Numbered from the stretch's first letter, positions 1-57,210 are shown. The stretch: 64,000 nucleotides of DNA from an uncultured Candidatus Saccharibacteria bacterium (GCA_964631145.1 CAZVXT010000001.1:553797-617796); one strand, 5' to 3'. Numbers and translations are program-made. Notes: generated by a model from the letters alone, not told the origin.

Positions 1-2
1 TT

Positions 3-185
3 GAAAATTTACCAAATCCATACACCGAAAAAGAATTAGATAAAATATGCGAAATTCTTAATAGGAATTTATTTGATGTTCATGTTGAAAAAGAAGCTTA
101 TGAGAAAGCAACCAAACAAGTTGCCGTAAATACTGATATGAGAGCAAAATTATTGGCTATTTTAGGGCAAGCTGAAAAAACATAA
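3..185 (+). CDS. C-terminal fragment of a CDS entering from upstream of the window (hypothetical protein)
   Basis: Open frame 3 from window start to TAA at 183-185 (…AILGQAEKT*), followed by an intrinsic terminator. Confidence 0.3.
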   Translation, partial: ENLPNPYTEKELDKICEILNRNLFDVHVEKEAYEKATKQVAVNTDMRAKLLAILGQAEKT

Positions 186-220
186 AAGGGAAACAGATAT
201 AAGTTTCCCTTTTTTATTTT
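186..220. terminator. Bidirectional rho-independent terminator
   Basis: Hairpin gggaaac/gtttccc then T-run; A-run on the other side serves the convergent minus-strand gene. Confidence 0.55.
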
Positions 221-2153
221 ATAATTCGTAAGTTTGACCAGGATTAATTCCATCATCTAGCGGTGGTGTATATACATCTACTTTGGATTTTGGGATAGGT
301 TGATTCTTAGAATTAGTAAAAGAATTTTCAATAGCACTGGATAAATTATCAACTAATTTTGACTGGCTTTCTGCTTGAACTTGTCTAGCAGTATCCCAAA
401 TATCTGTTTTATTCTTTTTAGGAGGATAAGTTTTTGGACCCTTGTTAAACACTTGCCCTGTATTAACTCTCTTATTAAAACTACTTTTATTATAATTTGG
501 TTTAGGTCCAAAAGAGTTGGAATCTTTATTATATTTACTATCAGAATTATCTTGATTTGATCTTACAAAGTTATTGTCAGGTTTTTTATTGTTAGGTATG
601 GCAAAATTTTTCTGATTCTGATTCTCATTTTGAGGTTGCTTAAATTTTTCTAAAAATTCGGAAGAAATTTGGACGCCAGGCTTAGACTGTTCTTCAATAT
701 CAGTATTTGGCTTTAATAAATCCGAAGCTTTTTCTTGTTGAGGAGAGGAACCATAATTTTGATTCTGTTTATAGTTATTAGGACGAGAATCTTCAGAGCG
801 TGTAAACACTTTCGCAGCTTCTGTGTCATCGCCTACAGAATGCGCAGAAGCTTCATGAAATTCAGCACCCATCCAGCGGCTGATTTTATCCTCAACTTGC
901 TCTCTTGGGTTAGCATACCGCTCCCGGGAAACTTTAATAACTTTGTCAGCATCACCTACTGACCAATTTTCATCAATCATTATAGTTTTAGCAGTAAAAG
1001 GATCGCTCGCAACACCATTAATCATTAACTTCAAAATAATATGAGCTTTGGGCAGATTAACAATATCATTTGGAGTAAATGCAGGAGCAAACTCTGTTTC
1101 CAAAAATTCTGCATCTGCAGCACCAACTCTAAACACCACCATACTTCCTACGTTACCAAACACAGCATCTCGAACTTTATTATTGCCATCAGGTGTTAAC
1201 TGTCCTATATATTGATGTCCCATAATCAAGTTAAGTCTGTATTTTCTAGCTTCACTTAAAATAGTTGCAAAACTGTCAGTAACGAAGTTTTGAAACTCAT
1301 CTACATACAAATAAAAATCTTTACGCTCGTGTTCTGGAATATCCACGCGGGATAAAGCAGCTAATTGTAGCTTTGTAATTATCATTGCCCCAAGCAATGC
1401 AGAGTTGTCTTCCCCTACTTTACCTTTTGATAAATCTAGCAACAGAATTTTTTGATTATCCATAATCTCGCGTAAATCTATAGTAGACTTTGGTTGTCCT
1501 ACAATATTACGAATAACCGCAGAAGATAAAAATTGTCCAACTTTATTTTGAATTGGAGCGACGGCTTCTGTACGGTACTTTTCTGCATAGTTAGCAAATT
1601 CTTCGACCCAAAAAGCCTTAACCATTGGATCTTTAATATTGTCCACAATTTTTTTACGATATTTTTTGTCGACATACATACGGACAATACCAAGCATGGT
1701 ATTGCCAGGGCTATCTAATAAAGCCAATATCGTATTGTTCAAAATATATTCCATACGACTAGACCACATACTAGCCCAAATCTTGGTAAAAACACCCATC
1801 AGCCCAGAAGCAACCAAATGCTTATACTGCGATTGTACAGACTCTAATATATTAAAAGCTATAGGAAACTCTAAATCTGCGGGGTTTACATAGATTACAT
1901 CATTAATACGAGACTTCGGAACATAGTCTAAAATCTTTCTGACAGAATCACCGTGAGGATCTATAAAGCAAATACCTTTTCCATTGCGAATATCCTGCAC
2001 GGCCATATTTTCGAGCAATGTTGTTTTACCCATACCAGACTTACCTATTACATACATGTGCTTTCGACGATCGTCTTCTTTAATACCAAAAGGAACCTGC
2101 TGATTGCGGTAATTTGTTTTTGCGAAAAAATTAATTAGTTCTTTATTATCCAT
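219..2153 (-). CDS. VirD4/TraG/TrwB-like type IV coupling-protein-family ATPase (AAA_10/DUF87-like) with ~220-aa N/Q/K/S-rich low-complexity C-terminal tail
   Basis: Walker A GKSGMGKTT, Walker B-like YLYVDEFQNF, motifs IDPHGDS and MGHQYIGQL typical of TraG/TrwB coupling ATPases; C-terminal third is compositionally biased. Confidence 0.55.
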   Translation of the reverse strand: MDNKELINFFAKTNYRNQQVPFGIKEDDRRKHMYVIGKSGMGKTTLLENMAVQDIRNGKGICFIDPHGDSVRKILDYVPKSRINDVIYVNPADLEFPIAFNILESVQSQYKHLVASGLMGVFTKIWASMWSSRMEYILNNTILALLDSPGNTMLGIVRMYVDKKYRKKIVDNIKDPMVKAFWVEEFANYAEKYRTEAVAPIQNKVGQFLSSAVIRNIVGQPKSTIDLREIMDNQKILLLDLSKGKVGEDNSALLGAMIITKLQLAALSRVDIPEHERKDFYLYVDEFQNFVTDSFATILSEARKYRLNLIMGHQYIGQLTPDGNNKVRDAVFGNVGSMVVFRVGAADAEFLETEFAPAFTPNDIVNLPKAHIILKLMINGVASDPFTAKTIMIDENWSVGDADKVIKVSRERYANPREQVEDKISRWMGAEFHEASAHSVGDDTEAAKVFTRSEDSRPNNYKQNQNYGSSPQQEKASDLLKPNTDIEEQSKPGVQISSEFLEKFKQPQNENQNQKNFAIPNNKKPDNNFVRSNQDNSDSKYNKDSNSFGPKPNYNKSSFNKRVNTGQVFNKGPKTYPPKKNKTDIWDTARQVQAESQSKLVDNLSSAIENSFTNSKNQPIPKSKVDVYTPPLDDGINPGQTYEL

Positions 2154-2168
2154 AATAAATAAAAATAG

Positions 2169-3353
2169 TTAGCCAATTGGCAAATTTGAAGGTGGTTGAA
2201 TCTTCTTCATTTCTAAACTTTCTACATTTGATAGCTGCGAAGGAGTGGTAATAGGAAAATGGAATATCGTAGCTAATTCTTCAGTGTTGAGTATAAATTT
2301 TGGTAACCCTACCCACATACTACGCCCTTTAAAGGCATTAAACAACTCTATCTTTCGTCTTCTAACCCACCAATTAATATAAGGAGCTTCTAATGTTGGA
2401 GAGATGCGATAATCTTTTTTTGGTGAAAATCCAGGTTTAAATCCATTAAAGTTTGCGGAGCCGAATATTTTAAACGGACTCAATACAAGTTTCTTTGCAT
2501 TTTTATTGAAAGATGATTTTAAACCCATATGCAAAAGTCTAATTTTTGTAGCAAATGCCGGTCTTCCCATTTTTGCTTTAATAGCCGTGATTCTTTGTTT
2601 TGTAATATCATCTAATGCCATATACTCTTTACCAGCTGATAATTTTTCGATTTGCTCTTTTGCTTCCGCTTCCCAATCTGCATCATTAACAGGTTGAATA
2701 ATCGTTTGAAGACTATAAATTTCGTTTGCGCTAATGGTCTTAAAAGCTTCAAACAGCGGTGATAATGGGTCAACTAATACATTACTAACTTCTGGTCCGG
2801 TTAATCCTTCAAATTCTCTATAAGTTCTGATTGGAATACTTTGAGATTTTAATAACACAAATTCTGCTGCAAAAATATCATAAGAAGTATCATCCGGGTC
2901 GTATGTAAAATTAGCTAGATAATCTTTCACTTCTGTAATTTCTAAGGTAGGATAGCTTGCGTATAAAGCAGCTTCTACCAAATCTCTTTGCTTTGCTGGA
3001 ATACGAAAAACATATGAAATATAACCACCTAAACTTACTATTTCCATAGATAATTTGAAAACAGTTTTACCTTCTAAATATTTTTCTTGGAAAGTAAAGT
3101 TATCAAGCAAAATATGCAACTGCATCAACACTTGCTCAGCGCTATAAAAACTTGTTGGATTTTCTTTCGGCGGCTTTATCTCTAAAAACACCCACTCGAT
3201 TGTAGATTCATATTGCCCTTGGATCTCATCCATATACATCTGATATAGCAAATAGATTCCAAGTATTACAAAAAAGACAAAACCGCCATGACTAAATACA
3301 AGCCAGGCGATTTTAAGTACATATAAAATATTAGGGAATATGCTAGTGTCCAT
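2169..3353 (-). CDS. Hypothetical protein with N-terminal transmembrane helix, co-oriented with coupling ATPase
   Basis: 394-aa ORF, hydrophobic N-terminus (IAWLVFSHGGFVFFVILGIYLL), 16-nt spacing to downstream ATPase gene. Confidence 0.5.
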   Translation of the reverse strand: MDTSIFPNILYVLKIAWLVFSHGGFVFFVILGIYLLYQMYMDEIQGQYESTIEWVFLEIKPPKENPTSFYSAEQVLMQLHILLDNFTFQEKYLEGKTVFKLSMEIVSLGGYISYVFRIPAKQRDLVEAALYASYPTLEITEVKDYLANFTYDPDDTSYDIFAAEFVLLKSQSIPIRTYREFEGLTGPEVSNVLVDPLSPLFEAFKTISANEIYSLQTIIQPVNDADWEAEAKEQIEKLSAGKEYMALDDITKQRITAIKAKMGRPAFATKIRLLHMGLKSSFNKNAKKLVLSPFKIFGSANFNGFKPGFSPKKDYRISPTLEAPYINWWVRRRKIELFNAFKGRSMWVGLPKFILNTEELATIFHFPITTPSQLSNVESLEMKKIQPPSNLPIG

Positions 3354-3386
3354 TATTTATGTTTGTTTTTATATCAGTTTAAAATA

Positions 3387-4535
3387 TTAGCGTGTAGCCA
3401 AATCGTAAAGATTTTTGCCAACTTTTTTGAAAAGTTTTTTGTTAGATAACCCCACCAAAACTGTATTCTTTTTCACTAAACGCTTTTCTAAAACATGCTT
3501 GATAATCTCATCGCGAGTCATTTCGTGTCCAGATTCTTTAAGAACCTCTACAATAATATCAGAAACAACGCCGGGTTTGTAACCCCATTCGGTTAAGGCG
3601 TAAATACCACGTCCAACCAAAACAAAACGCTTATCTTTGATTAATTTATTATGAACAGTTTCTTTGTAAGCTTTGCGCTTATCAATGCCGTGCTTATTAA
3701 TCAACTCTGTGATCATAGAATAGTGTTCTGGTTTGCCATGATGTTTCATTACCAAATAAGCTTTATCGCCTACATCTTTAGGCTTTATTTCATTCCAGTG
3801 CCCTAAGCCAAATTCTCCAAATGGATTCTTTTTAATGCCAGCGGCGCTTTGAAGGTAATTAAGAACTACTTTAGGAGTTAATTTATCTTGATAGGTTTCA
3901 AAAAACTGAGATTTTTCCAATTTTTTTATGAAAGTATCAGGATCAATTGGCTTACCATGTTCATCTAATAAAGTTTTTGTAGTTTTAACAAATTCTATAA
4001 GAAAATCTTTATCAAAACCAATTTTGCTCCATGATCGCAATACATGCTCATCGCCAGTATGTTCTTCAATTTCTACTATTAACTTAAGCAAAAACTTAAT
4101 GGCATTTACATCACTTTCTGTTTCTGCGCCAAGATAAGTCATTAAAGAATCTTCAGACATAATGCCACCGTGTTCATGAATTGCAGACAAAATTAAATCA
4201 CGAGCTTCGATAAACTCTTCTAATTCTGCAACACCACGCTTAAGGTTCTTTAATAATTCTTTTTCGATTTGGCGAACGCGCTCTCTTGTTAAACCTTGTT
4301 CATCACCAACAGTTTTTAAGGTTTGACTAGATTCTCCCACCAAACCATAACGCTTGGAGAGAATATCTTTTTCTCGATCTTTAAGCGGTCCAAGAATTTT
4401 AGTAACGATTAAGTTAAGTTCAAATTGTTGTAAAGATTCTTTATTGTGAGAATCAATAATTGTATCCAAAATACCCATAAAATCAGTATAATTAAAAGAT
4501 ATTCTGATTATATCATACCATTCTAAAATGGTCAA
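3387..4535 (-). CDS. Sigma-70 region-4-like HTH domain protein (putative regulator)
   Basis: N-terminal DREKDILSKRYGL…LKTVGDEQGLTRERVRQIEKEL matches sigma-70 region 4 / LuxR-type HTH; C-terminal winged-helix-like tail. Confidence 0.4.
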   Translation of the reverse strand: MTILEWYDIIRISFNYTDFMGILDTIIDSHNKESLQQFELNLIVTKILGPLKDREKDILSKRYGLVGESSQTLKTVGDEQGLTRERVRQIEKELLKNLKRGVAELEEFIEARDLILSAIHEHGGIMSEDSLMTYLGAETESDVNAIKFLLKLIVEIEEHTGDEHVLRSWSKIGFDKDFLIEFVKTTKTLLDEHGKPIDPDTFIKKLEKSQFFETYQDKLTPKVVLNYLQSAAGIKKNPFGEFGLGHWNEIKPKDVGDKAYLVMKHHGKPEHYSMITELINKHGIDKRKAYKETVHNKLIKDKRFVLVGRGIYALTEWGYKPGVVSDIIVEVLKESGHEMTRDEIIKHVLEKRLVKKNTVLVGLSNKKLFKKVGKNLYDLATR

Positions 4536-4681
4536 ATAATAAAGTGAAAGAAAATATTATTAAAAGTCCAATATTTCCTAGTATTTTTATTAATATTTGA
4601 TGTATATTCTTAAAAAATTTTATTCAGTATAACACAAAAGCATAAAGTTAAACCTTATGCTTTTGAATATTTTAGATAAAT

Positions 4682-5608
4682 TTATTTAGCTAATTTTCTA
4701 TTTTTCCAGTTTTGCCAGATTACCAAAGTTGGACTAGCAACGAAAATTGAAGAATAAGTTCCAACTGCAATACCAATAAACAAAGCTAGAACGAAATATC
4801 TAATAGTATCACCACCGAACAATAATAAGGCTAGCAATACCAACAACACTGTTAAGCTGGTATTAAGAGACCGAACCAATGTTTGACTAATACTATGATT
4901 AACAATAAATTCTAAGCTTTTGCCTCCATAAACGCGTAAATTTTCGCGAATACGATCGAAAACAATAATTGTATCATGAACAGAGAAACCTAATACTGTT
5001 AACATGGCGGTAACGAACATGCTATCAACTTCTACTTTTAAGTAATGCCCTAAAATTGAAAATACTCCCAAAACAACAAGTAAGTCGTGAAGCAATGCTA
5101 CGATAGCGGCTACACCAAATTGCCAAGAGGATATTGGACGGTTAACCTTACGAAAGGCGTAAGCGATATAGATAATGATACCTATAGAAACCAATAATAA
5201 CTGGTAAATAGCTTTTTTAGTTAACTGCTCCCCTACAACTGGACCGATGGATTCAAATCTTAGTTCTTCGAAGTTACCAAATTTTTCTTTAATTTTTGAA
5301 AGCAAATTATCATGAGCTGATTTTTCCATATCACCTGTTTTGAAAATTATTCCATTATTATCTGTAGGTTGAGTTTGGAATGAGCCTATGTTTTGCTCTG
5401 TAAGAAAAGAATTAAACTGAGCTTGATCAACAGATTTTTCAAATTTAACTTCTGTTACGGTACCACCTTTGAAATCGATACCAAGATTTAATCCATACAC
5501 AGCTAATGAACCAACACCTAAGACTAAGATTGCAATCGATACTGCGATTAAATATTTGTAATAATTTAGTAGCTTCATTTTATTTATTATCCTTGATTTT
5601 AATTCCAA
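4682..5608 (-). CDS. secF: Protein translocase subunit SecF
   Basis: GIDFKGGT motif, six TM helices pattern, directly downstream of secD. Confidence 0.85.
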   Translation of the reverse strand: MELKSRIINKMKLLNYYKYLIAVSIAILVLGVGSLAVYGLNLGIDFKGGTVTEVKFEKSVDQAQFNSFLTEQNIGSFQTQPTDNNGIIFKTGDMEKSAHDNLLSKIKEKFGNFEELRFESIGPVVGEQLTKKAIYQLLLVSIGIIIYIAYAFRKVNRPISSWQFGVAAIVALLHDLLVVLGVFSILGHYLKVEVDSMFVTAMLTVLGFSVHDTIIVFDRIRENLRVYGGKSLEFIVNHSISQTLVRSLNTSLTVLLVLLALLLFGGDTIRYFVLALFIGIAVGTYSSIFVASPTLVIWQNWKNRKLAK

Positions 5609-7070
5609 ATAGCCAAGGATGAGAGAATAGCTTGGCAGTTACAAAGAGTTTAAGTAGAGTTCTAGTTACAGTAATTGCACTAAACATAGAAATTAAGATA
5701 CCGATAGACAAAGTTACAGCAAAACCTTTAATTGATGGGGTACCAAATAAATATAAGATTATAGTTGTAATTAAACTCGATACATTTGAATCTCTAATAG
5801 ACATCCATGCTCTAGCAAATCCATCCTCAATAGCCTTTGGAACGTCTTTGCCAGCACGCAATTCTTCTTTCATACGTTCGAAGATCAAAATATTAGCGTC
5901 TACTGCCATACCGACTGACAAAATGAATCCTGCAATACCAGCCAATGTTAAGGTTACGGGAGCTAATGCACCATTGATTAACATCAAAACCAAATAACTA
6001 AGCAGTGCCATTAAGCCAAAATACCAGCTCACTGTAATTCCTAATAAGAAGAATGCGCCAACTAAGACTACTGCAGTTACCGAAATACCAATTTTAAAGA
6101 TCGCAATAGACATTAATACATACAAAAGCAATGCGGCAACAGCAAGTAATCCTGGAAATCTATAGAAAAAGACCATAAAGAGGGCAACCAATAACAAGCC
6201 TATCAATCCAGCAATAATAGATTTTTGGATTGACTCTTTACCTAAAGTTGCACCAACATTTTGCTGGGAGATTAATTTAATCGGTACTGGCAATGCACCA
6301 GAATTTAAGCGGGTAGCAAATAATTTTGCTTCTTCAGGAGTAAAGTTTCCAGAAACAATAGCTTCGCCATTAGTAATTGCAGTTTGTACAGTTGGAGCAC
6401 TAATTATTTGACCATCCAAAATAATTGCAATTGGCTTTCCAATATTTGCTTTTGTTAAATCAGAAAATAATTGGGTACCTTCATCATCAAATTGCAATTT
6501 TACTACAATTTCTGAAGCTAATTGGCTTTTGCCAGAACTTTGCGCTTCTGCAATTGCCTTCTTCAAATTTTTACCTGATAATTTTGTAGGTATCCAGGCA
6601 GACAAAGGATCTATAACAACTTTTCCATCCGGACCAACTGTTGCATCCTGTGGCTTATTAGGGTCACCTTGAGTTCTAAATTCTAATAAAGGAGTTTGCC
6701 CTATTTGATCAATGGCTTTGTTAATATCAGTAATACCTGGAAGTTCTACAACAATCTGGTCAGTACCTTGTGTTTGAACTACTGGTTCGGATACTCCAAA
6801 ACTATTAACACGACGCTCAACAGTATCTCGAGCCGCTTGCAAGGCTTCACGCTTATCCCCTTCAGCAATATCTTTAAAATCAGCTTGATATACAAGATGT
6901 GCGCCACCTTGCAAATCCAAGCCTAAATGTATACCATATTGCTTGTTAAAATTGATTTTTAGCTTTCTTAAGTCAATTTTACTGCCGCCTGGCCAAACAA
7001 TCCATGCAGTAGCCAGCCCTAAAAGGACTATAAAGACAAAAAGTACTACTCTTTTGTAAAATGCTTTCAT
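5580..7070 (-). CDS. secD: Protein translocase subunit SecD
   Basis: LGLDLQGG motif, periplasmic domain plus C-terminal TM bundle; overlaps secF start. Confidence 0.85.
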   Translation of the reverse strand: MKAFYKRVVLFVFIVLLGLATAWIVWPGGSKIDLRKLKINFNKQYGIHLGLDLQGGAHLVYQADFKDIAEGDKREALQAARDTVERRVNSFGVSEPVVQTQGTDQIVVELPGITDINKAIDQIGQTPLLEFRTQGDPNKPQDATVGPDGKVVIDPLSAWIPTKLSGKNLKKAIAEAQSSGKSQLASEIVVKLQFDDEGTQLFSDLTKANIGKPIAIILDGQIISAPTVQTAITNGEAIVSGNFTPEEAKLFATRLNSGALPVPIKLISQQNVGATLGKESIQKSIIAGLIGLLLVALFMVFFYRFPGLLAVAALLLYVLMSIAIFKIGISVTAVVLVGAFFLLGITVSWYFGLMALLSYLVLMLINGALAPVTLTLAGIAGFILSVGMAVDANILIFERMKEELRAGKDVPKAIEDGFARAWMSIRDSNVSSLITTIILYLFGTPSIKGFAVTLSIGILISMFSAITVTRTLLKLFVTAKLFSHPWLFGIKIKDNK

Positions 7071-7107
7071 TTCTTAATATTTTTTAATTCTTTTGTATTA
7101 TACTAGG

Positions 7108-9669
7108 TTATTTTTGTTTAGCAAAGCCCTTAAAATAGCTATCTACTAATTCTGAATCTCGCTTAATCCAAGCCAAATTTATTCTAATCTTTTCGATAGT
7201 CTGAGCAACTGATTGCTTTTCTGTTTTTAAATATGGTTTAGCGTAATTTTGAAACTCCTTTAGTAGCTCATTAGTGCTAAAATCTCTCGCTCCTTCTATG
7301 ATATAGCCCATTAACTTGCCACCCATAAACATTTCTCTTAGTTGTTTATCTCTTGATTTTATTTCTTGCCACATCAAATGTGAAGTTTTTGAAATTAACA
7401 TCCCATGGATAATAGCAATTGGCAGGTCTTGAGGTCTAACTTGTCCAGAAAAAATAAACTCCAGTACTTGCTTGTATTCTTTTTCTCCTTTAGTTCTTAG
7501 CATTGCCGCTACAAGTTGATTTCGTTCTTCTTGAAGAGTAGCTTTTTTGTATTTATCAAATAGCGTGCTTAAAACTTTATTGTCACTGTAACTTGCTACA
7601 GCTAAAATTGCAGTTTTATGATTCCTATCAATACTTTTATTTTTTTCATACAAACTAAATTGTTTTTTTGCATATTGTTCGACTTCTTTCAGCCCAGCCA
7701 AGCCCGCATTACTAATAGCCAAAGATCTTAAAAGCTTTTGACTATCTGTATCATTCTTTTGGGAATTATATCCAAGCCTTGTTAAGACATTTGCGTACAA
7801 TTGTTTTTTCCAATTTAGAAAACTTTCGTAATATTTCTTATTTGAGGTAAAGAATACTCTTTCAATTTGTGCTAAATTCCCTGATATTTCTGCCCATACA
7901 ATATAACTATCTTCTGTCGCAGATATTTGGTTTACCACTTCCAAATATACGTCAGTTTGCACATATCCAGAAATCGCTAATAAGTACAAATTTCTAATTA
8001 AGGCTAATCTATCGTTAGAACCAATCTGCTTATTTTGCATCGCGCTTACTAATAAAGCAAGATATTTAATTGGGTAGTTTGTTATATAAAAACTTTGTTC
8101 ATTTGGATTGAGCTTAATAAATTTATAATTATTCTCGATATGCAAATGTGATATAGCCTTATTTGCTAAAATCATCCCACTCTGTTTATCATGATCAATT
8201 AACGCCTGCACCGGCACTTGCCATAAAGTTTTATCTTCATTCTTTTGAAGTGTAAAACGCTTTTGTGATAACTCTAACCCCTTTTTAGCATCAGTTATAG
8301 TAATAACTGGGTAACCTTTATCCTGTGTCCAAGCTTTTACTAAAGCAGAAATATTCTTATTAGACACCTTATCAAAAGCAGCCCACAAATCTTCCGAACT
8401 CGTATTTCCATAAGAATGCTTTTTTAAATAAATACGAAGTGCGTCCCGAAAATTATCAGCTCCGATATATCCCGAAATCATGCGCAAAATACTCGCTCCT
8501 TTACTATAAGAAATACCGTCAAATATTTCGCTAATCTCATGCGAGTGCTTAACTTCCACTTCTATTGGATGAGTCGAGAGCAAAGCATCTTCCTTAAGTG
8601 CATAAGACTGTTCTGATAATACAAACTTTGTCCAGAATCTCCACTCTGGAAATAACTCATCTACAACCAAATACGCCATATAGCAGGCGAAGCTTTCATT
8701 TAGCCACAAATGCGTCCACCACTTCATTGTGACCAAATTTCCAAACCACTGATGAACTAATTCGTGAGCAATAACTTCTGCAACTCGCTGTCTATTAATC
8801 AAAGATGTGTGCTTTTCATCTACCAATAAAGCAGTCTCTCTAAAAGTAATAGCGCCCCAATTTTCCATAGCGCCAGCTGCAAAATCTGGAATTGCTAATA
8901 AATCTAAGGTTTTAAGAGGATACTTAATACCAAAATAATTTTCTAAAAACTCTAAGCTTCTCTTTGCCGTCTCTAAACTAAAGGCAGCCAAATTGCTTTT
9001 GCCAGGTGTTGTATGAACTTTAATGACTGTGCCATTTTTAGTCTTTGTTTTAATATGATCTAACTCTCCAATTACGTATGCTAATAAATAGCTCGACATT
9101 TTTGGCGTTGATTCAAAATGCACAATCTTTTTATCCTTGCCTAATTTTTCAATTTTCTTTTCTTGAGTATTAGAAACAACTTGTAAATTTTTTGGAACGA
9201 CAATAGACAAATCGAAAATGGCTTTATGACTAGGCTCATCAAAACATGGAAAAGCCCGTCTTGCATCTGTGGCTTCAAATTGAGTGGTAGCCAAATGCTT
9301 TTCTTTTTTGTCATGAGTATACTTACTTCGATAAAACCCGTGGAGTTTATCATTAATACTTCCTGTAAACTCTATACATAAATTACCTTTTCCAAGTAAG
9401 CTAGTCGCAAATGTCAAAATAACTGTTTCAGAATACTTGTCATACGAAACATCTTTGCAATCTATTTGTTTTTTACCAAACTTAAAAACAGCCGAATTGA
9501 TTTCTATGTCGATACAATGCAAAACTATTTCTTTTGTTTTCTTTTTTATATCTATGTTAATAGCTTCAGATCCACTAAATGTAAAATTTTCTAAATCTGG
9601 GACAATTTGAAGAGTATATCTAATTGGCACCACATGATCTGGCAGCCGGTGATTGTTGGATTGTTTCAT
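7108..9669 (-). CDS. pepN: Aminopeptidase N (M1 family zinc metallopeptidase)
   Basis: GAMEN exopeptidase motif (AAGAMENWG) and HELVHQWFG…E zinc-binding HEXXH-E motif. Confidence 0.85.
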   Translation of the reverse strand: MKQSNNHRLPDHVVPIRYTLQIVPDLENFTFSGSEAINIDIKKKTKEIVLHCIDIEINSAVFKFGKKQIDCKDVSYDKYSETVILTFATSLLGKGNLCIEFTGSINDKLHGFYRSKYTHDKKEKHLATTQFEATDARRAFPCFDEPSHKAIFDLSIVVPKNLQVVSNTQEKKIEKLGKDKKIVHFESTPKMSSYLLAYVIGELDHIKTKTKNGTVIKVHTTPGKSNLAAFSLETAKRSLEFLENYFGIKYPLKTLDLLAIPDFAAGAMENWGAITFRETALLVDEKHTSLINRQRVAEVIAHELVHQWFGNLVTMKWWTHLWLNESFACYMAYLVVDELFPEWRFWTKFVLSEQSYALKEDALLSTHPIEVEVKHSHEISEIFDGISYSKGASILRMISGYIGADNFRDALRIYLKKHSYGNTSSEDLWAAFDKVSNKNISALVKAWTQDKGYPVITITDAKKGLELSQKRFTLQKNEDKTLWQVPVQALIDHDKQSGMILANKAISHLHIENNYKFIKLNPNEQSFYITNYPIKYLALLVSAMQNKQIGSNDRLALIRNLYLLAISGYVQTDVYLEVVNQISATEDSYIVWAEISGNLAQIERVFFTSNKKYYESFLNWKKQLYANVLTRLGYNSQKNDTDSQKLLRSLAISNAGLAGLKEVEQYAKKQFSLYEKNKSIDRNHKTAILAVASYSDNKVLSTLFDKYKKATLQEERNQLVAAMLRTKGEKEYKQVLEFIFSGQVRPQDLPIAIIHGMLISKTSHLMWQEIKSRDKQLREMFMGGKLMGYIIEGARDFSTNELLKEFQNYAKPYLKTEKQSVAQTIEKIRINLAWIKRDSELVDSYFKGFAKQK

Positions 9670-9694
9670 TTTTTTATTATAACAAAAGTATTGC

Positions 9695-10255
9695 TTAAAT
9701 TTTAGAAATTAGTTTTTTTAACTTTTTAAAGTCTTTTAAAATTACAGGCCTTAGCTTAGGGCTATATAAAGGTGCTGCGGGATGATAACTTAAAAAATAC
9801 TGAACGCCATCATGCAAAATAATTTTTCCATGATCGTTTGCCATATTTACTTTCTGGTTTAATAAAGTCATTGCTGATACTGCCCCCAAAATCACAATAA
9901 CTTTTGGACTGATAACTTTTATTTGTTGTTGCAAATGAATTTTACCGTGCTCTATGTCTTCCGGCTTAGGAGTAATGTATGTTTGAGGTAAGTACTTAAC
10001 AGCGCTCGTAATAAAAATATCTTTATCAGAAATTTGAATTTGCTCTAACAAATCTCTAAGCAATTTTCCTGCGCGTCCAATAAACGGCTTACCAGTGATA
10101 GATTCATTTTTCCCAGGTGCTTCACCTACTAGCATTATTTTTGAATTAGCACTTCCCTCCCCTGGAACCAAAATTCCCTTTACTCGATTTAGACAAAACT
10201 TACAAGTTAAAATACTCTTTTGAACTTTTTCCAGTTGTTTTTCTTTTAGACCCAT
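9695..10255 (-). CDS. Uracil-DNA glycosylase, family 4
   Basis: GEAPG motif (LVGEAPGKNE), FeS Cys ligands (CKFCLNR), HPAAPLY C-terminal motif. Confidence 0.8.
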   Translation of the reverse strand: MGLKEKQLEKVQKSILTCKFCLNRVKGILVPGEGSANSKIMLVGEAPGKNESITGKPFIGRAGKLLRDLLEQIQISDKDIFITSAVKYLPQTYITPKPEDIEHGKIHLQQQIKVISPKVIVILGAVSAMTLLNQKVNMANDHGKIILHDGVQYFLSYHPAAPLYSPKLRPVILKDFKKLKKLISKI

Positions 10256-10330
10256 ATTGGTATTTTATCATGAGACATTGACTTGAAAACATATTATTGA
10301 TACCATATGTAGATTTAACTAGGAGGAAAT

Positions 10331-10729
10331 ATGGAAGAAAAAGTTCAAATTATTGTTTTAGCAACTTACCTTAATCCAATTGATGATAATTATGAATGTG
10401 AATTTTATTGCACTGGCAGAAGATTAAACATGGATGAAGTATATAAATTGGGATTAAGCAAACTATATAAAGGCAAGAGCCCGTATTGCCCGGCTTGGTA
10501 TGAAGTTAAGCCTGGTAATAAAATTTATTACAGAAATGTAGATAGAGACAGAAACTTCTATCAGCATATTGAATATACTGTCCCCAAAGATGGGTTTAAA
10601 GAACCAATATCTATTTACGATCTGTTTTCTGTTTTTGCTGGATCATATCAATTTATGTGGCTTACCGAAGAGTGTCAGTATAAAGAAATTAGCAATAAAG
10701 AATTTTTAGAAAAAACCATAGGATTATAA
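10331..10729 (+). CDS. Hypothetical protein
   Basis: 132-aa ORF with GGAGG RBS (aactaggaggaaatatg); no recognised domain. Confidence 0.5.
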   Translation: MEEKVQIIVLATYLNPIDDNYECEFYCTGRRLNMDEVYKLGLSKLYKGKSPYCPAWYEVKPGNKIYYRNVDRDRNFYQHIEYTVPKDGFKEPISIYDLFSVFAGSYQFMWLTEECQYKEISNKEFLEKTIGL

Positions 10730-10730
10730 A

Positions 10731-10768
10731 TCAAAGCCGCAGATAATTCTGCGGCTCTATTTTATTTA
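10731..10768. terminator. Bidirectional intrinsic terminator between secA and upstream + gene
   Basis: Hairpin gccgcagataattctgcggc followed by T-rich tract. Confidence 0.5.
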
Positions 10769-13470
10769 TTTAGATTCTTTTGGTGTTGCTGGGAGTTTAT
10801 TAATCCGCACTTTTTGTACTTCATTCCACTACCGCAAAAACATGGGTCGTTTCTTCCAATAGTTTCACCCCTAGGATCTGCATTAGTATTTTCCATTGCT
10901 GTTTGACCAGCTGCAGTTAGCACAACATTATTTTGGCTTGGTGCTTCAGCCTGCAGTCCTGTAGAAACACGTAAAATGGTACTACTTACCTGCTTATCAA
11001 TTTCTGCCAATAATCTGTTAAATAATCCGTGACCTTCTTTTTTATACTCCACTAATGGATCACGCTGTCCATAACCGCGAAGTCTTACCGAGTCCCGTAA
11101 ATGATCCATAGTATCTAAGTGTTCCATCCACAAAGTATCGATGGCTTGTAAGTTTACCAATCTTCCGATTTGTGCAAATTGTTCTGCACCAAATTCTTGC
11201 AGCTTTTGGTCTAAAGCTTTGTCTATTACTAAATTAATTTCATCTAAGAGTGCAAATTCTTTATCTGCTGCACTATTTACATTAGATAAAATTTGATTAT
11301 AAACTTCATTAGTAATTAGTACAAAAGCTGAAATATCTTTAATACTTTCTTTAACTGCCTCATCTTCATCTAAGCTCTCAAAATAATTTTTGATAATTTG
11401 AGCAACTTGAGATTTTAAAAGTTCTTCAAAAAAAGTTTTAGCATCAAATTGACCATTTTCTAAACCTGGCAAAAACAAACGGCGCTTTTTGTAAATTACA
11501 TTGCGTTGGTGATTTAAGACATCATCAAATTCTAATACGTGTTTGCGAGTGTCAAAGTTTAAGCCTTCTATTTTCTTTTGTGCAGATTCAATAGATCTAG
11601 ACACCATTTTTGCTTCGATTGGCTGATCGTCAGGGATTCGAAGAGTTTCCATAATGCTTTGCATACGAGTACCACCAAAAAGCCTCATTAAGTCGTCTTC
11701 CATAGAAACATAAAATTGGCTATAACCAGGATCACCTTGGCGTCCGCTACGCCCACGAAGCTGGTTATCAATACGGCGAGATTCATGTCTTTCACTACCA
11801 ATAACAGCCAAGCCGCCGCTAGCTTTTACTTTTTCTGCTTCTTCTTTATCAACTGGATTACCTCCGAGTAAAATATCCACACCGCGACCAGCGATGTTAG
11901 TAGCCAAAGTTATTGCACCAGGGCGACCGGCTTGAGCAATAATCTGAGCCTCACGTTCATGATTTTTGGCATTCAAAAGTTCAAACTGCAAACCTTCTTT
12001 TTTTAGAGCATCTGCTAAAATTTCGTTTTTAGCAATACTAACAGTACCAATCAATACTGGCTGTCCATTTTTATGACGCTCTTTTACATCTTTAGCAATA
12101 GCTGCAAACTTTGCGGCTTCATTTTTGTAAACCAAGTCAGCGGCATCTTCTCTTTGCATGCCTTTATTAGTAGGAATTTGATCTACCTCTAATTGATAGA
12201 TTTTGAAAAATTCTTCTTCTTCAGTTTTTGCAGTACCTGTCATACCAGAAAGCCTGCTATACAACCTAAACAAATTTTGAAAAGTAATTGTAGCAAGAGT
12301 TTTGCTTTCTTGCTGAATTTTTACATTTTCTTTTGCTTCAATAGCTTGATGAAGACCTTCGCTATAACGACGTCCAAACATTAATCTTCCGGTAAATTCA
12401 TCAACAATAATGACTTCACCATCTCGAACGACGTAATCTCTATCACGTTTGAATAAAGTTTTAGCACGCAGTGCAGCTTCTATATGATGAAGAGTCTGCG
12501 CACCTTTTGCGGTATCGTAAATGTTACCGACATTTAATATCTTTTCGATTTTATTAATACCATCATCTGTTAAACTTGCAGCCTTATGCTTTTCATCTAC
12601 TGTATAATCTTTTTCTTCTTCTAGCCCAGAAACAAGTTTTGCAAATTGATAATACTTATCTGTTGGATCTGTGTCTGGCTGAGAAATAATTAAGGGCGTG
12701 CGAGCTTCATCAATCAAAATACTGTCAACTTCATCAACAATAGCAAAAAATAATTCGCGTTGACGAAGCTGGCTTGCATGCTGAACCATGTTATCGCGCA
12801 AATAATCAAAACCAAATTCATTATTGGTTCCAAACGTAATATCTGCACGATACGCTTCTTGCCTAGAAACAGGACGCATATGCTTAACATCCAAAACTAA
12901 TCCTTCTGTTTGACTTTCAATTTCTGCAATCTCCTCTGCTTCGGGCATGTATTCTGGGTCATACAAAAAAGAAGCTTCGTGTTGAATGCTGGCAATTGAT
13001 AATCCCAACTTGTGATAAACAGGACCCATCAAACTAGCTTGCCATCGTGCTAAATAGTCGTTAACTGTAACAATATGAGTACCTCTTCCAGAAAGAGCAA
13101 ATAAAGCCAAAGGCAAAGTAGCTGTTAAAGTTTTACCTTCACCAGTTTTCATTTCTGCAATACGGCCTTCAGCCAAAACTAATCCACCTGCAAGCTGGAC
13201 ATCATAATGAAACAATCCAATTGCCCGACGTGCTGCTTCTCTAGTTAAAGCAAAAACTCTGCTTCTAATTGTTTTTAATTCTTTAAAAATTTGATCAGTA
13301 TCAGATACTTGGGATAACTTATTTTTAAATTCAGACATCTCTTCTAAAATCTGCTGATCTGATAATTTCTTTATTTCTTCTTCTAAACTATTAATTTCTT
13401 CAATCTGAGCTTGGTATTTGGTTAAAGGATTGCTCGAACCTCTGGAAAATAAACGTGTAAATATAGACAT
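10762..13470 (-). CDS. secA: Preprotein translocase ATPase SecA
   Basis: DEAD-like motor motifs, C-terminal zinc-binding CFCGSGMKYKKCG; ORF track start 13524 but canonical SecA N-terminus begins at M19 (MSIFTRLF…, 13470). Confidence 0.9.
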   Translation of the reverse strand: MSIFTRLFSRGSSNPLTKYQAQIEEINSLEEEIKKLSDQQILEEMSEFKNKLSQVSDTDQIFKELKTIRSRVFALTREAARRAIGLFHYDVQLAGGLVLAEGRIAEMKTGEGKTLTATLPLALFALSGRGTHIVTVNDYLARWQASLMGPVYHKLGLSIASIQHEASFLYDPEYMPEAEEIAEIESQTEGLVLDVKHMRPVSRQEAYRADITFGTNNEFGFDYLRDNMVQHASQLRQRELFFAIVDEVDSILIDEARTPLIISQPDTDPTDKYYQFAKLVSGLEEEKDYTVDEKHKAASLTDDGINKIEKILNVGNIYDTAKGAQTLHHIEAALRAKTLFKRDRDYVVRDGEVIIVDEFTGRLMFGRRYSEGLHQAIEAKENVKIQQESKTLATITFQNLFRLYSRLSGMTGTAKTEEEEFFKIYQLEVDQIPTNKGMQREDAADLVYKNEAAKFAAIAKDVKERHKNGQPVLIGTVSIAKNEILADALKKEGLQFELLNAKNHEREAQIIAQAGRPGAITLATNIAGRGVDILLGGNPVDKEEAEKVKASGGLAVIGSERHESRRIDNQLRGRSGRQGDPGYSQFYVSMEDDLMRLFGGTRMQSIMETLRIPDDQPIEAKMVSRSIESAQKKIEGLNFDTRKHVLEFDDVLNHQRNVIYKKRRLFLPGLENGQFDAKTFFEELLKSQVAQIIKNYFESLDEDEAVKESIKDISAFVLITNEVYNQILSNVNSAADKEFALLDEINLVIDKALDQKLQEFGAEQFAQIGRLVNLQAIDTLWMEHLDTMDHLRDSVRLRGYGQRDPLVEYKKEGHGLFNRLLAEIDKQVSSTILRVSTGLQAEAPSQNNVVLTAAGQTAMENTNADPRGETIGRNDPCFCGSGMKYKKCGLINSQQHQKNLNK

Positions 13471-13616
13471 AAATATTACCGGAAAACCGGACTTTCTTTT
13501 AAAATTACCAATTAAGTATACCAAATAATATATCAGTGGTCACATAAGTTTATGTTGACATATAGTGAAAAATATGTTACTTTTATATGTCTATCAAGAC
13601 ACAAAGGAGGAAAATT

Positions 13617-23821: not shown

Positions 23822-24212
23822 TTAAGCAAGTCGAGCGATTACTTCCTATTTTAGGTCATGCGCGGTAAATCCACGAATATATTTAATACTAATTACTGCT
23901 CATAATCTAAAATAGGAAGAGGAAAGTCCGAACACTTAGTTTGAAAGATTCATATGAGCTTTTAAACAATGGTAACGGGTAACACCCGTCGAGGGCAACC
24001 TTAGAGATGCGAGCAGAGACGCTGTCTTCAGCAATGAAGCAGCTTCCCAAATTTATTTGGGAAGAGCCGCTATGGCAACACAGCGGGTGAAACGGCTAAA
24101 TTCTTATCAAAGTGCAATGCCAAATTTGGTAGGCAGCACGAGATTATTGGCAACAATAATCCTAGATAGATTATCGCTTAGAAACAAAATTCGGCTTACG
24201 AGCTTGCTTAGA
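23822..24212 (+). ncRNA. rnpB: RNase P RNA (bacterial)
   Basis: GAGGAAAGUCCGAAC (P4 5' strand) and ACAAAAUUCGGCUUACGAGC (P4 3' strand) conserved blocks; P1 helix taagcaagt/gcttgctta closes the ends. Confidence 0.85.
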
Positions 24213-24294
24213 GCTAAAATAAAAACACACGAAATTTTAACATGAGTTATTTTTTTCGCGTGTTTTTAATTTACAAAATTGTTTAGGAGGAAAA

Positions 24295-37776: not shown

Positions 37777-37977
37777 TTAATGTGCGGCTCTCAACTTTGC
37801 TGCTTTTTCAACAACCTTTCTTTGATCTCTGTTTGCTTCCTTTACCACCTTTTCTATGACTTTTTTCTTATAAGACGATGAGGCATCATGAGAGAACCTA
37901 GAAAATTTGCTTTGCTTTATTTTATTTACCTTACCGCTAGTACCAAATATTTTATTTAAAAAATCCATCATATTCAT
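37777..37977 (-). CDS. Small basic protein (66 aa), translationally coupled to zeta-like kinase
   Basis: ATGA overlap with upstream gene; K/R-rich helical sequence. Confidence 0.4.
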   Translation of the reverse strand: MNMMDFLNKIFGTSGKVNKIKQSKFSRFSHDASSSYKKKVIEKVVKEANRDQRKVVEKAAKLRAAH

Positions 37978-38675
37978 TCGATTAATTTTCTAAGCTCGTC
38001 TTCATTATAAAAAATGTCTAGATGATTGTCAATATTTTCAATATCTAATCTTGTCTTACCAATATCATTATCATAATCTTTAATTACTAAATTTAACCTG
38101 ATTTGATGTCCAAAATCATTTTTTAACTTATTGACATTATTTTTTGAGGAGACAAAACCATTAATAAAAGCATCTTTTGTAATGTTTCTTCCTTCTAATA
38201 ATTCTCGATCTTGTGTGAACTTCCAAGCTATTATCGGATCCTGATACAAATAATATATTTCAATATAATTTCTGTATCGTAAACTTAACTCAATATTAGA
38301 TTTAGCAACAACGTAATTTGCCATTGTACCATCCAATACAAAGTTTTGATTATTTTTTAAAACAAAGTTATAAATTTCTGAAACACCAATACTTATTGCA
38401 TTTTGAAATAAATAAGCATTTGTACCATTATATATTTCAGAGGGCAAAGTATTTCTAATTTCATCCGGATCAATTCTCACCACACCATCACCTAGTTCTT
38501 TAATCAAATCTTTTGAAAATTCAGTTTTACCTGCACCTGGTGAACCAGCCATAAATACTGAAGCTGGCTTATCATCCGGTAAATAAATTTTTACATTAGC
38601 AAATTTATTAATTAAATCGTTTTTAGACTTACGAATATGTTTCGCTGCTTGCTTAGATAATTCTTCATCTTTCAT
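37974..38675 (-). CDS. Zeta-toxin-like P-loop kinase family protein
   Basis: VFMAGSPGAGKTEFSK Walker A, downstream RIDPDEIR and VLDGTM resembling PF06414; start moved to MKDEEL (38675) because the longer ORF overlaps tRNA-Trp. Confidence 0.5.
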   Translation of the reverse strand: MKDEELSKQAAKHIRKSKNDLINKFANVKIYLPDDKPASVFMAGSPGAGKTEFSKDLIKELGDGVVRIDPDEIRNTLPSEIYNGTNAYLFQNAISIGVSEIYNFVLKNNQNFVLDGTMANYVVAKSNIELSLRYRNYIEIYYLYQDPIIAWKFTQDRELLEGRNITKDAFINGFVSSKNNVNKLKNDFGHQIRLNLVIKDYDNDIGKTRLDIENIDNHLDIFYNEDELRKLIE

Positions 38676-38716
38676 AAACTCATCATAACAAAAAACCGCC
38701 TTCACGGCGATTTTTG

Positions 38717-38790
38717 TGGCAGGGGCTGTAGGAATCGAACCTACGCAAATGGTTTTGGAGACCATTGTACTACCATTATACGAAGCCCCC
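38717..38790 (-). tRNA. tRNA-Trp (anticodon CCA)
   Basis: Cloverleaf: GGGGGCT acceptor, anticodon loop CTCCAAA, T-arm GTAGGTTCGATTCCTAC, CCA encoded. Confidence 0.85.
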
Positions 38791-51438: not shown

Positions 51439-51669
51439 TTATGATAGTAAATATTTTAAGAATCCTATTAATGTATCAATAACAGTTTTAAGAACTGGAA
51501 TTGATGAAGGCAGTAATACAACTAAAAGAATTAAGTATATAAAATTCTTTTTCAGAACTTGAATTACAGAATAAACCAATAATCCAGCAATAATAAAAGG
51601 GATGACTGGGCGAATAAACTCTGGAAAAATATTGAGGATGCTATTATAAATATCTATTAAAGCTGTCAT
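51439..51669 (-). CDS. Small membrane protein (76 aa)
   Basis: Two hydrophobic helices; same strand as lexA. Confidence 0.35.
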   Translation of the reverse strand: MTALIDIYNSILNIFPEFIRPVIPFIIAGLLVYSVIQVLKKNFIYLILLVVLLPSSIPVLKTVIDTLIGFLKYLLS

Positions 51670-51677
51670 AAATTTAT

Positions 51678-52241
51678 TTAAATTGCTAATGATATATTTG
51701 GGTAGTCAAATATATCTTTTATGAATCTATCAAAAGTATCCTTTCTATCCTGAAATTCTTGCTGCGACATAACAGTGTAATTAATTTCTGTGTTAACTAG
51801 TTCACTATATTTTGTTATAAAATCTCCAAGCTTATTGTTATGCTTTCCTACCAATAAAATATCTACAGGCAAATTAGGTTGCATTACAAAAATTCCTGAT
51901 AAAACAATTTGCTTATAAGAACCAGTGGTTTTGATCCCTGCTAGCAAAGGATCTATGGTAGAAGATAATACATTATTAGTTTTCTGTAATTCCGTCTTTA
52001 TATTCTTTATCAAACCGCTATTAGAATTAACCTGATAAAACAACTCTTCTTCTTTATTAGAAGTTAATAGTAATTGATGATAAGCCAAACTTTTAAGTGC
52101 GCTAATAATTTGAGGTTTTGGACGACCAATGATAGTAACCAACTCCCCCGCGGCGTAAGCTCGGGGTACTGAAAATAGCATGTAAGTCAACAAATCTGTC
52201 TGAACTTCAGATTCTAAAATTTTTGATAAAATAGCTAACAT
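51678..52241 (-). CDS. Hypothetical protein
   Basis: ORF-track start 52343 overlaps the divergent gene; internal ATG at 52241 (MLAILSKIL…) gives a clean divergent promoter region. Confidence 0.45.
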   Translation of the reverse strand: MLAILSKILESEVQTDLLTYMLFSVPRAYAAGELVTIIGRPKPQIISALKSLAYHQLLLTSNKEEELFYQVNSNSGLIKNIKTELQKTNNVLSSTIDPLLAGIKTTGSYKQIVLSGIFVMQPNLPVDILLVGKHNNKLGDFITKYSELVNTEINYTVMSQQEFQDRKDTFDRFIKDIFDYPNISLAI

Positions 52242-52307
52242 ATTACTAATATTATACCATGTGGTGTTCCCACTCTGAATAAATGATATAATGAATATAA
52301 GAATAAT

Positions 52308-54341: not shown

Positions 54342-54407
54342 AATAAAACCCAGCCTTGACTCGGGCTTTATTTTATGGTAATTTTATAAAAATTTCAGGA
54401 GGCATTT

Positions 54408-55001
54408 ATGAGAGAACAACCGCATACAGATATTACTGATGTAATGCTAGTTAATGGATATAAGACATTAAAAGCAATGCTATTATTTAATTATTTTACT
54501 GTTGGGCAAGTGTGCGAACATGCACAAGTTACCAGTGACTTTGTTAATCTTGTAATACAAGATTTTTCATTAGCTCAATATTTTCAACACTACGAAGAAA
54601 ATGATAATCCACTTGATTCGGAATATGTATTATCAAGTCAGGGCTGGAATGAAATATTTCAAATATCTGAAAATATGTATAACAACCAAATTTTAGTGCA
54701 TAGCACTTTAAATAGATTAGTAACTAAAGGCTTAATAAATGTTTATCCAGCCAACGATGAAACAATCATTGAAAGCCTAAAAATGACAGAAATTACTTTA
54801 GATGAATGTTTCAAATCTGATAAAAAATCGGTTAAAGAATTTAAATTAAGTGTTGCTAAATTTTATCTTGATTCATTAATCAATCATACAAAAGGTATTC
54901 AGGTTCTTGAACCTGAAAAACCAGATGTTCAAGAACTGGCAAAAAAAGTGAATCAGTGTATAAAAAAATTTCAAGAATATTCTGAAACATTAGCACAATA
55001 A
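54408..55001 (+). CDS. Hypothetical protein
   Basis: CAGGAGG RBS; 197 aa, no domain. Confidence 0.45.
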   Translation: MREQPHTDITDVMLVNGYKTLKAMLLFNYFTVGQVCEHAQVTSDFVNLVIQDFSLAQYFQHYEENDNPLDSEYVLSSQGWNEIFQISENMYNNQILVHSTLNRLVTKGLINVYPANDETIIESLKMTEITLDECFKSDKKSVKEFKLSVAKFYLDSLINHTKGIQVLEPEKPDVQELAKKVNQCIKKFQEYSETLAQ

Positions 55002-55003
55002 AA

Positions 55004-55035
55004 ATAGACCTCTACATGTAGAGGTCTTTTATTTT
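55004..55035. terminator. Bidirectional intrinsic terminator
   Basis: 22-nt perfect palindrome agacctctacatgtagaggtct plus T-run. Confidence 0.65.
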
Positions 55036-55448: not shown

Positions 55449-55564
55449 TATTAATATCCCCCGTTTTATATTTTGAATAAATAATACAGCAACTGTGCAG
55501 CCATGTAAAGCTTGACGCTAGACATAGTTAAACCTATAATACTTAAAAAATACGGAGGAGATTT

Positions 55565-57148: not shown

Positions 57149-57210
57149 ATATTTCTTTCACTCTATAAAATACAGAGTATAATATCCGACCTTTTAACTG
57201 CATATCCGAA

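Follow-up and report, generated by a model that had tools for sequence, protein, structure and literature searches.

A coupling-protein-like ATPase and its DUF8128 membrane partner in a Candidatus Saccharibacteria locus: a probable split coupling protein

Type IV coupling proteins (T4CPs) such as TrwB of R388, TraD of F and SXT, VirD4 and DotL are P-loop ATPases with Walker A and B motifs. The coupling protein TraJ of pIP501 has been described as lacking a membrane domain of its own, and anchoring by a small membrane protein, TraI, was proposed (PMC12857230). In the ultrasmall Patescibacteria, which account for much of the diversity of bacteria and have other cells as their habitat, a survey of 2,918 genomes counted 5,713 VirD4-like T4CPs, only 148 of them near virB4, so that there are thousands of "orphan" coupling-protein genes far from the genes of type IV secretion systems (T4SS); the survey assigned the Patescibacterial T4SS to the MPF_FATA class, raised exaptation as a possibility for the orphans and left their role open (PMC12102498). 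Here we describe a coupling-protein-like ATPase and the membrane protein encoded next to it in a stretch of 64,000 nucleotides (nt) from an uncultured Candidatus Saccharibacteria bacterium (GCA_964631145.1 CAZVXT010000001.1:553797-617796; hereafter the window). In our reading the pair is a split, chromosomally fixed coupling-protein variant with a VirB4-like anchor domain, which gives the orphan coupling proteins a defined partner, DUF8128, with the apparent fold of the VirB4 N-terminal domain. The orphan ATPase is already in the literature; no mention was found, in the literature searched, of DUF8128 as its partner, of the fold of DUF8128, of the split/fused relation or of the MOB_C ancestry.

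The pair belongs to three co-oriented open reading frames (ORFs) on the minus strand at 219-4535, all of them present as claimed in the original prediction, which was made from the sequence alone. Lengths are in amino acids (aa).

219-2153, minus strand: ATPase gene, 644 aa
2169-3353, minus strand: membrane-protein gene, 394 aa, DUF8128
3387-4535, minus strand: sigma-like gene in its longest reading, 382 aa from a TTG
3387-4478, minus strand: likely true extent of the sigma-like gene, 363 aa, with sigma region 4 and HARE-HTH
834-2153, minus strand: ATPase core, aa 1-440, a coupling-protein-like P-loop ATPase by Pfam, PDB sequence matches and motifs
2022-2045, minus strand: ATPase Walker A, GKSGMGKT, aa 37-44, aligning to the TrwB motif
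1296-1313, minus strand: ATPase Walker B, YLYVDE, aa 281-286, aligning to the TrwB motif

The ATPase shares with the canonical T4CPs both Walker motifs and Pfam matches above the gathering scores of TrwB_AAD_bind (43.5 bits; gathering score 20.5) and TraG-D_C (28.9 bits; gathering score 22), which bears out its description as coupling-protein-like. TrwB and DotL were the only solved structures matched in a PDB sequence search. The DUF87/HerA score lay just under the Pfam gathering score, FtsK_SpoIIIE (PF01580) gave no match at E <= 1, and a phmmer search of the window with E. coli FtsK, an insensitive test, gave none either; the case named in the original prediction as contrary to it, an FtsK-type ATPase beside neighbors that are not co-conserved, is thus not what we found, the neighbors being co-conserved as described below. 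Because the Pfam models pass whereas the NCBIfam equivalog and subfamily models that matched (TraD and VirD4-like CD1115 models) were all far under their cut-offs, the ATPase appears to be a member of the T4CP superfamily that belongs to none of its named subfamilies. No transmembrane segment was found in it (no hydrophobic window at KD19 >= 1.6), and Walker A starts as early as residue 37. The Pfam alignment covers aa 25-345, and aa 100-220 are predicted to be helical. A model of the core made by AlphaFold2 (AF2) with 24 close homologs (78-88% identical) had a predicted local distance difference test (pLDDT) score of 42.7 and was unusable.

The 394-aa protein had been described as a single-pass membrane protein of no recognizable family. 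The single membrane segment stands, but the protein does have a family: a database protein of 100% identity (P0001) and almost all of the homologs listed are already annotated as PF26449 (DUF8128). Our local Pfam copy, which lacks the DUF8128 model, gave no match to it, and a literature search for DUF8128 or PF26449 returned nothing.

3234-3329, minus strand: N-terminal hydrophobic helix of the DUF8128 protein, aa 9-40, its sole hydrophobic segment
2253-2288, minus strand: conserved C-terminal motif of the DUF8128 protein, NTEELATIFHFP
2172-2207, minus strand: conserved C-terminal motif of the DUF8128 protein, KKIQPPSNLPIG

After the N-terminal helix comes a cytoplasmic alpha/beta domain, and across the family the conserved C-terminal motifs read EELAT.FHFP and KK.QPP.NLP. 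In a Foldseek search TrwK chains made up 10 of the 12 best matches (probability 0.99-1.00), in agreement with a VirB4-like fold. The second-best fold match of the protein is EccE, which is a membrane component in ESX type VII protein secretion. DUF8128 has no P-loop and we therefore infer that the match falls on the N-terminal domain of VirB4, the aligned residue ranges not being displayed by the search. The DUF8128 family profile matched no PDB sequence, and it gave no sequence-profile signal against TrsD and TrsE of pSK41, an Embleya VirB4 or TrwK (hhalign < 0.5% for TrsD, TrsE and the Embleya VirB4). DUF8128 also differs from the VirB4 (TrwK) N-terminal domain and from TrsD (pGO1/pSK41) in that the ATPase attached to it or partnering it is a T4CP-type rather than a VirB4-type enzyme.

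Is DUF8128 a genuine partner of the ATPase, as had been proposed? We surveyed 80 related loci, of which 76 could be evaluated for the step from DUF8128 to the ATPase and 72 for that from the sigma-like gene to DUF8128. The ATPase lies immediately downstream of DUF8128 in 51 of the 76 Patescibacterial loci, mostly at a distance of 0-50 nt, and the sigma-like gene immediately precedes DUF8128 in 56 of the 72, so the check on neighborhood co-conservation that had been suggested came out in favor of the partnership. In the window the DUF8128 and ATPase genes are 15 nt apart and share a reading frame, and the gap between the sigma-like and DUF8128 genes is 33 nt. The two proteins also occur as a natural fusion of 956 aa (P0495), with DUF8128 at 2-420 and TrwB_AAD_bind at 447-759, in which a DUF8128 end, PTNLPIEG, is directly joined to an ATPase start, LFAKTNFR. 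The 90%-identity cluster of this fusion has members on four contigs from three archives (one in ENA, two in JGI, one in Logan), the junction DNA is clean, and on four contigs the sigma-like gene precedes the fused gene too. Moreover, both window proteins match one phage family profile, phrog_5156 (824 positions), the ATPase over 391-811 (E 4.6e-61) and the membrane protein over 62-204 (E 5.3e-10). A second apparent fusion, in locus L015, was rejected: an N-run (translated as X) lies at its junction and the open frame may be an artefact. At loci where the ATPase is not adjacent, we looked for decay of the DUF8128 C-terminal motif and found none; the motif persists. YceG/MltG follows DUF8128 in several sampled Paceibacterota-type loci of this kind (L025, L027, L036, L044, L061 and others), and in L039, which was checked (compare L019, L042, L046 and L076), the genes after DUF8128 encode a GT4 glycosyltransferase and a large protein with DUF4012; these neighbors have cell-envelope functions.

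Relatives of the module are found on mobile elements. A tblastn search with the ATPase core matched 714 plasmid records and 33 phage records. Plain HMMER searches with DUF8128 against plasmid ORFs found no match, and only profile-profile comparison gave a signal: a broadened DUF8128 profile of 98 sequences, compared by hhalign, detected four relatives, with reversed and shuffled controls scoring <= 15 and, like five unrelated T4SS proteins, staying below 0.5% probability.

Streptomycetaceae T4CPs (actinobacterial plasmids), N-terminal regions: fused to the ATPase; local probability 86.5%, E 4.6e-6; global 94.7%
Bacillus subtilis plasmid T4CP-like protein of 913 aa, N-terminal region: fused; probability 98.1%, E 7.6e-14
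Haloarchaeal plasmid of Natrinema, split form, with a separate upstream ORF of 395 aa that overlaps the beginning of a gene for a TraM-recognition ATPase: probability 97%, E 1.1e-10
Phage SPO1 gp27.4, 906 aa, phrog_5156: fused; probability 81%, E 1.2e-5

The N-terminal region of a Bradyrhizobium T4CP proved not to resemble DUF8128. All four relatives have the same two modules in the same order as the window pair, with ATPases that are 24-32% identical; the Embleya/Streptomyces plasmid proteins (812-819 aa) are fused, unlike the window pair, whereas the Natrinema pair is split exactly like it, and the SPO1, Bacillus and Natrinema versions differ in missing the strongly hydrophobic N-terminal segment. 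Because homologs of DUF8128 are fused to T4CP-like ATPases in plasmids and in SPO1, comparison of the sequences indicates that the window's two proteins form one T4CP-like machine split over two polypeptides, rather than the uncharacterized ATPase-based system that had been offered as one reading.

The genes beside these relatives suggest where the module came from. In Embleya the order is PrgI, a VirB4-like ATPase, the DUF8128-bearing T4CP, Replic_Relax and NlpC/P60, so that a separate, true VirB4 is present alongside the T4CP; on the B. subtilis plasmid the DUF8128-bearing T4CP is followed by Replic_Relax, TcpE and an ATPase; and in SPO1 gp27.4 is followed by gp27.3, which is annotated "replication initiation by nicking" and shares 27% identity with the Embleya Replic_Relax. 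Replic_Relax (PF13814) corresponds to the relaxase family MOB_C (PMC5357655), and since it is the next gene in three of the four mobile-element relatives (none was seen beside the Natrinema pair), the ancestral setting of the DUF8128-ATPase module was probably a DNA-processing/transfer module. T4SS genes are near the module in two of the four elements, Embleya and Bacillus, where VirB4-like, PrgI or TcpE genes are present. The Patescibacterial version differs in having no relaxase that we found and in being preceded by the sigma-4/HARE-HTH gene. In SPO1 (L095 2747-6284) we also noted a partition protein ahead of gp27.4 and the phage sigma factor gp28 at a distance of 2.4 kb.

Set against the canonical T4CPs, then, the window ATPase lacks an N-terminal transmembrane domain, the membrane helix lying in the separate 394-aa protein encoded upstream, and the pair is chromosomal, has no relaxase or T4SS genes that we found nearby and has an ATPase core conserved above the level of SecDF. 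A proposed precedent for such a division is pIP501, which likewise combines a coupling protein that has no membrane domain with a separate (there, proposed) membrane anchor. TraI itself is small, with two membrane helices and no large cytoplasmic domain, and is likened to DUF8128 here by description only.

The ATPase ends in a tail that had been described as N/Q/K/S-rich, of low complexity, about 220 aa long and unusual for VirD4.

219-833, minus strand: ATPase tail, about 204 aa (aa 441-644) plus stop codon, recognized by its low-complexity composition
318-404, minus strand: "IW.TA" helix motif of the tail, aa 584-612, conserved in homologs
222-248, minus strand: C-terminal motif of the tail, INPGQTYEL, conserved in homologs

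The composition was as described (N 13.7%, K 11.8%, S 10.8%, P 8.3%, Q 8.3%), the length is about 204 aa, and the tail is no oddity: tails of 122-251 aa, of varying composition, are present in 23 of 23 aligned homologs, which makes the disordered tail a family-wide trait. Two motifs in it are conserved across homologs, an "NPIW.TA" helix and a terminal "LKPGE.H.L/F". Partner-binding C-terminal extensions are known in TraD and DotL. The C-terminal motif does not track the adjacency of the sigma-like gene, since it is present both with and without it. In some tails a treble-clef zinc-finger-like segment replaces the "PGE" terminal motif (Pfam zf_Tbcl_2 in L015, ~8020-8110; CxxC motifs at the C-termini of L078 and L079).

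The third gene had been read as a regulator with a sigma-70 region 4 helix-turn-helix. That domain is present (Sigma70_r4, below), together with a second type of domain.

4236-4385, minus strand: Sigma70_r4 of the sigma-like protein, ~aa 32-81, Pfam 42.4 bits (cut-off 24.1)
3585-3764, minus strand: HARE-HTH winged helix, aa 239-298, Pfam 44.6 bits over two stretches
up to the C-terminus, minus strand: second winged-helix region

Its start is most likely the ATG at 4478, which gives 363 aa, because a 100% identical database protein has that length and homologs have 360-365 aa. It aligns to region 4 of RpoS/RpoD in 67 PDB sequences, with matches covering region 4 only; NCBIfam sigma models match it at their C-terminal ends only and far below cut-offs; and Sigma70_r2 gave no match at E <= 1 in Pfam. 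As region 4 is present and region 2 is not matched, the protein is not a complete sigma factor.

What it might do instead is suggested by Southlakia epibionticum ML1, in which SEML1_0294, with Sigma70_r4 and HARE-HTH, was called essential at three of three time points, and SEML1_0293, directly downstream of it and 921 aa long with TrwB_AAD_bind at 402-719, was called non-essential; normalized reads for SEML1_0293 drop from 5,817 to 1,372, and comparable drops occur in other non-essential genes. Both are listed as core, Patescibacteria-enriched families. The gene order is that of the window, a Sigma70_r4 and HARE-HTH protein followed by a TrwB_AAD_bind protein, and SEML1_0294 is the apparent counterpart of the window's sigma-like gene. 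SEML1_0293 differs from the window's separate 644-aa ATPase in that its ATPase domain begins near residue 400, and it is apparently the fused DUF8128-ATPase form, its N-terminal family being read from length and domain position. Because SEML1_0294 is essential while SEML1_0293 is not, the sigma-like protein probably has a core role of its own, at RNA polymerase or DNA, and is probably not a simple regulator or subunit of the ATPase; most likely it is an RNA-polymerase-associated or DNA-binding factor whose essential role is its own. The same literature table lists a second "TraM recognition domain" ATPase in S. epibionticum, SEML1_0142 (1,019 aa, essential), the P-loop domain of which is classed with an FtsK structure; the number of distinct T4CP/FtsK-like motors in Patescibacteria is therefore at least two.

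How might the split machine work? The explanation that we consider probable is that DUF8128 serves as the anchor of a T4CP-like motor that moves DNA toward a membrane conduit. DUF8128 would hold a hexameric ATPase at the membrane, in the way put forward for TraI and TraJ of pIP501, and its conserved C-terminal peptide, EELAT.FHFP...PP.NLP, would lead into or dock on the ATPase N-terminus, an arrangement suggested by the fusion junction. The tail motifs of the ATPase may recruit a partner or substrate, and the motor may then move DNA or nucleoprotein toward the conduit, the likeliest candidate for which would be the monoderm-type T4SS encoded at another place on the chromosome in most Patescibacteria. 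Because the relaxase has been lost and the pair is fixed in a secA-secDF housekeeping neighborhood, the ancestral conjugative role has presumably been altered.

Several observations weigh against this explanation. The all-alpha domain and the hexamer geometry of the ATPase are putative; the ATPase is not adjacent to DUF8128 in 25 of the 76 loci; and the likeness of DUF8128 to the VirB4 domain is one of predicted structure only, unaccompanied by a sequence-profile signal. The search for VirB4, relaxase and other T4SS genes came up empty both among the window ORFs scanned with Pfam (n = 23), which agrees with the earlier claim of no relaxase or VirB genes nearby, and within 6 kb of DUF8128 in the 80 related loci, where the relaxase search used a weak three-sequence MOB_C mini-HMM (a small hidden Markov model). 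A further ~40 window ORFs, identified by eye only or not at all, lay outside the Pfam scan; single-sequence phmmer searches of the window ORFs with T4SS, relaxase and FtsK proteins gave no match, and these were so insensitive that TrsK missed even the window ATPase. The ATPase core is better conserved than SecD and SecF, which is unusual for a gene derived from conjugation. In S. epibionticum the T4SS is essential and SEML1_0293 is not, so SEML1_0293 is not needed for the essential T4SS function. Lastly, the lytic phage SPO1 has no T4SS and carries the same DUF8128-ATPase module, from which it follows that this motor can work without a T4SS. The dispensability in S. epibionticum, the T4SS-less SPO1 and the housekeeping-level conservation together weaken a simple coupling role.

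A different explanation is that the pair is a T4SS-independent housekeeping DNA translocase, a split coupling protein taken over for a core task of the cell and active in DNA uptake for transformation, in FtsK-like segregation of chromosomes or dimers at the membrane, or in DNA export. We hold this to be rather unlikely, but there are points in its favor. Over 20 loci the median identity to the window is 68.5% for the ATPase core, 54.6% for SecD, 52.0% for SecF, 41.4% for the sigma-like protein and 30.1% for DUF8128, so that the constraint on the motor is tighter than that on SecDF. The family is broad in Patescibacteria: relatives occur in at least 576 species genomes, the lineages among the matches listed being Doudna-, Uhr-, Magasanik-, Falkow-, Buchanan-, Moran-, Terry- and Andersenbacteria, Paceibacterota and Minisyncoccia, and an exhaustive profile search gave 3,014 clusters at 50% identity. 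Its neighborhood is of a housekeeping kind and has no T4SS genes (see also PMC12102498), and relatives of the pair keep company with nickases, in one case inside a phage that has no T4SS. Non-essentiality in co-culture would also suit a competence-like role, because comEC is likewise dispensable in S. epibionticum. On the other hand, neither the window nor the loci showed a direct tie of the pair to ComEC, pili or division genes, S. epibionticum has a second, essential TraM-recognition ATPase in SEML1_0142, and FtsK is reported in Saccharibacteria.

A bolder form of the idea, which we think unlikely, would make the pair a chromosomally fixed DNA motor of Patescibacteria, independent of any T4SS, that is for instance the missing energizer of DNA uptake or of an exchange of DNA with the host. 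It would stem from a plasmid and phage module of a DUF8128-T4CP and a MOB_C nickase, the VirB4-like domain would reflect an ancestral VirB4/coupling-protein architecture, and the tail and the essential sigma-like protein would supply the targeting to DNA or RNA polymerase.

The company of Sec genes raises yet another possibility, namely that anchor and ATPase are an accessory of Sec-dependent export, recruiting particular proteins such as epibiont effectors or energizing their export. A one-strand block of secA ... secD-secF-(sigma-like gene)-DUF8128-ATPase recurs in distant Patescibacterial lineages (window 4682-13524; loci L003-L081). In 29 of 57 loci SecD and SecF are encoded upstream on the same strand at a distance of 6 kb or less, with SecA further upstream in 10 loci, and where the sigma-like gene is missing SecDF stands directly upstream of DUF8128. 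EccE, the second-best fold match of DUF8128 and part of the ESX type VII complex, partners the FtsK-like ATPase EccC, and some T4CPs recruit protein substrates. A role of the trio as an epibiont secretion component, which the original prediction had mentioned, is possible. Nevertheless we judge the Sec accessory to be very unlikely: all close non-Patescibacterial relatives adjoin DNA-processing genes (the MOB_C relaxase) and not secretion substrates, the linkage to secDF is looser than that within the trio and may be mere conserved housekeeping order, and no chaperone or effector signal was seen. That the trio is instead an anti-phage defense module or a decaying integrated mobile element is extremely improbable, for although in PADLOC the ATPase matches mad8 of MADS (E 1.8e-16) and the sigma-like protein matches MzaA (E 2.1e-9), and relatives are found on plasmids and phages, the MzaA match is confined to the generic sigma region 4, PADLOC gave no match for DUF8128, no integrase, relaxase or other defense genes are adjacent and no further MADS/MZA components were seen nearby, the GC content of the trio (0.32-0.35) is uniform with its flanks, the two S. 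epibionticum genes are counted among core families, and gene order is kept across deep Patescibacterial lineages with ATPase conservation above that of SecDF, which is the opposite of patchy, fast-evolving islands.

If the split coupling protein simply serves a T4SS encoded at a distance, the result is a useful annotation and not a surprise. A coupling-protein lineage with a VirB4-like N-terminal domain also bears on the divergence of VirB4 and VirD4, and, as the homologous locus SEML1_0293/0294 is apparently present in the genetically tractable S. epibionticum, the functions considered above can be tested there.

The three genes can be read as a single operon, framed by two candidate signals.

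4507-4535, minus strand: sigma-70-like promoter candidate TTGACC-N17-TATAAT with a TG extended -10, 11/12 match, upstream of the sigma-like gene
184-213, no strand assigned: bidirectional intrinsic-terminator-like hairpin, 11-bp stem flanked on each side by a T-run, just past the stop codon of the ATPase gene

The promoter candidate, read from 4535 to 4507, is the best sigma-70-like match in 1-4750 and lies inside the TTG extension of the sigma-like gene; the total of promoter-like sites in 1-4750 does not exceed the shuffled expectation, so that quality and position are what single this one out. Housekeeping genes flank the trio on either side, and the GC content of the window is 31-38%. Homologs of the window proteins come from assemblies of Patescibacteria (candidate phyla radiation, CPR), many of them labeled Doudnabacteria.

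Elsewhere in the window we noted the following.

23823-24214, plus strand: bacterial RNase P RNA class A, 112 bits, in an ORF-free gap
37974-38765, minus strand: zeta-toxin-family kinase ORF, E 6e-32
48269-50260, minus strand: 663-aa DUF11-repeat surface protein ending in "PKTGS" and a hydrophobic tail, like a sortase signal
51439-56155: run of ORFs, one of them (52308-54341) coding for 677 aa; those scanned gave no Pfam match
57204-57360, minus strand: ribosomal protein L10 leader, upstream of ORFs read by eye as L10 and L7/L12
59584-59742, minus strand: Rfam tmRNA match of 159 nt only, 60.9 bits, spanning the whole model
60400-64000: few long ORFs, GC 0.34-0.38, above the rest of the window

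The longest frame of the zeta-toxin-family ORF overlaps a tRNA-Trp (38717-38790), and its true start is therefore probably an internal Met. ARAGORN made no call at the tmRNA match, which may be a reduced or permuted form, and the run of ORFs at 51439-56155 adjoins an ORF read by eye as LexA-like.

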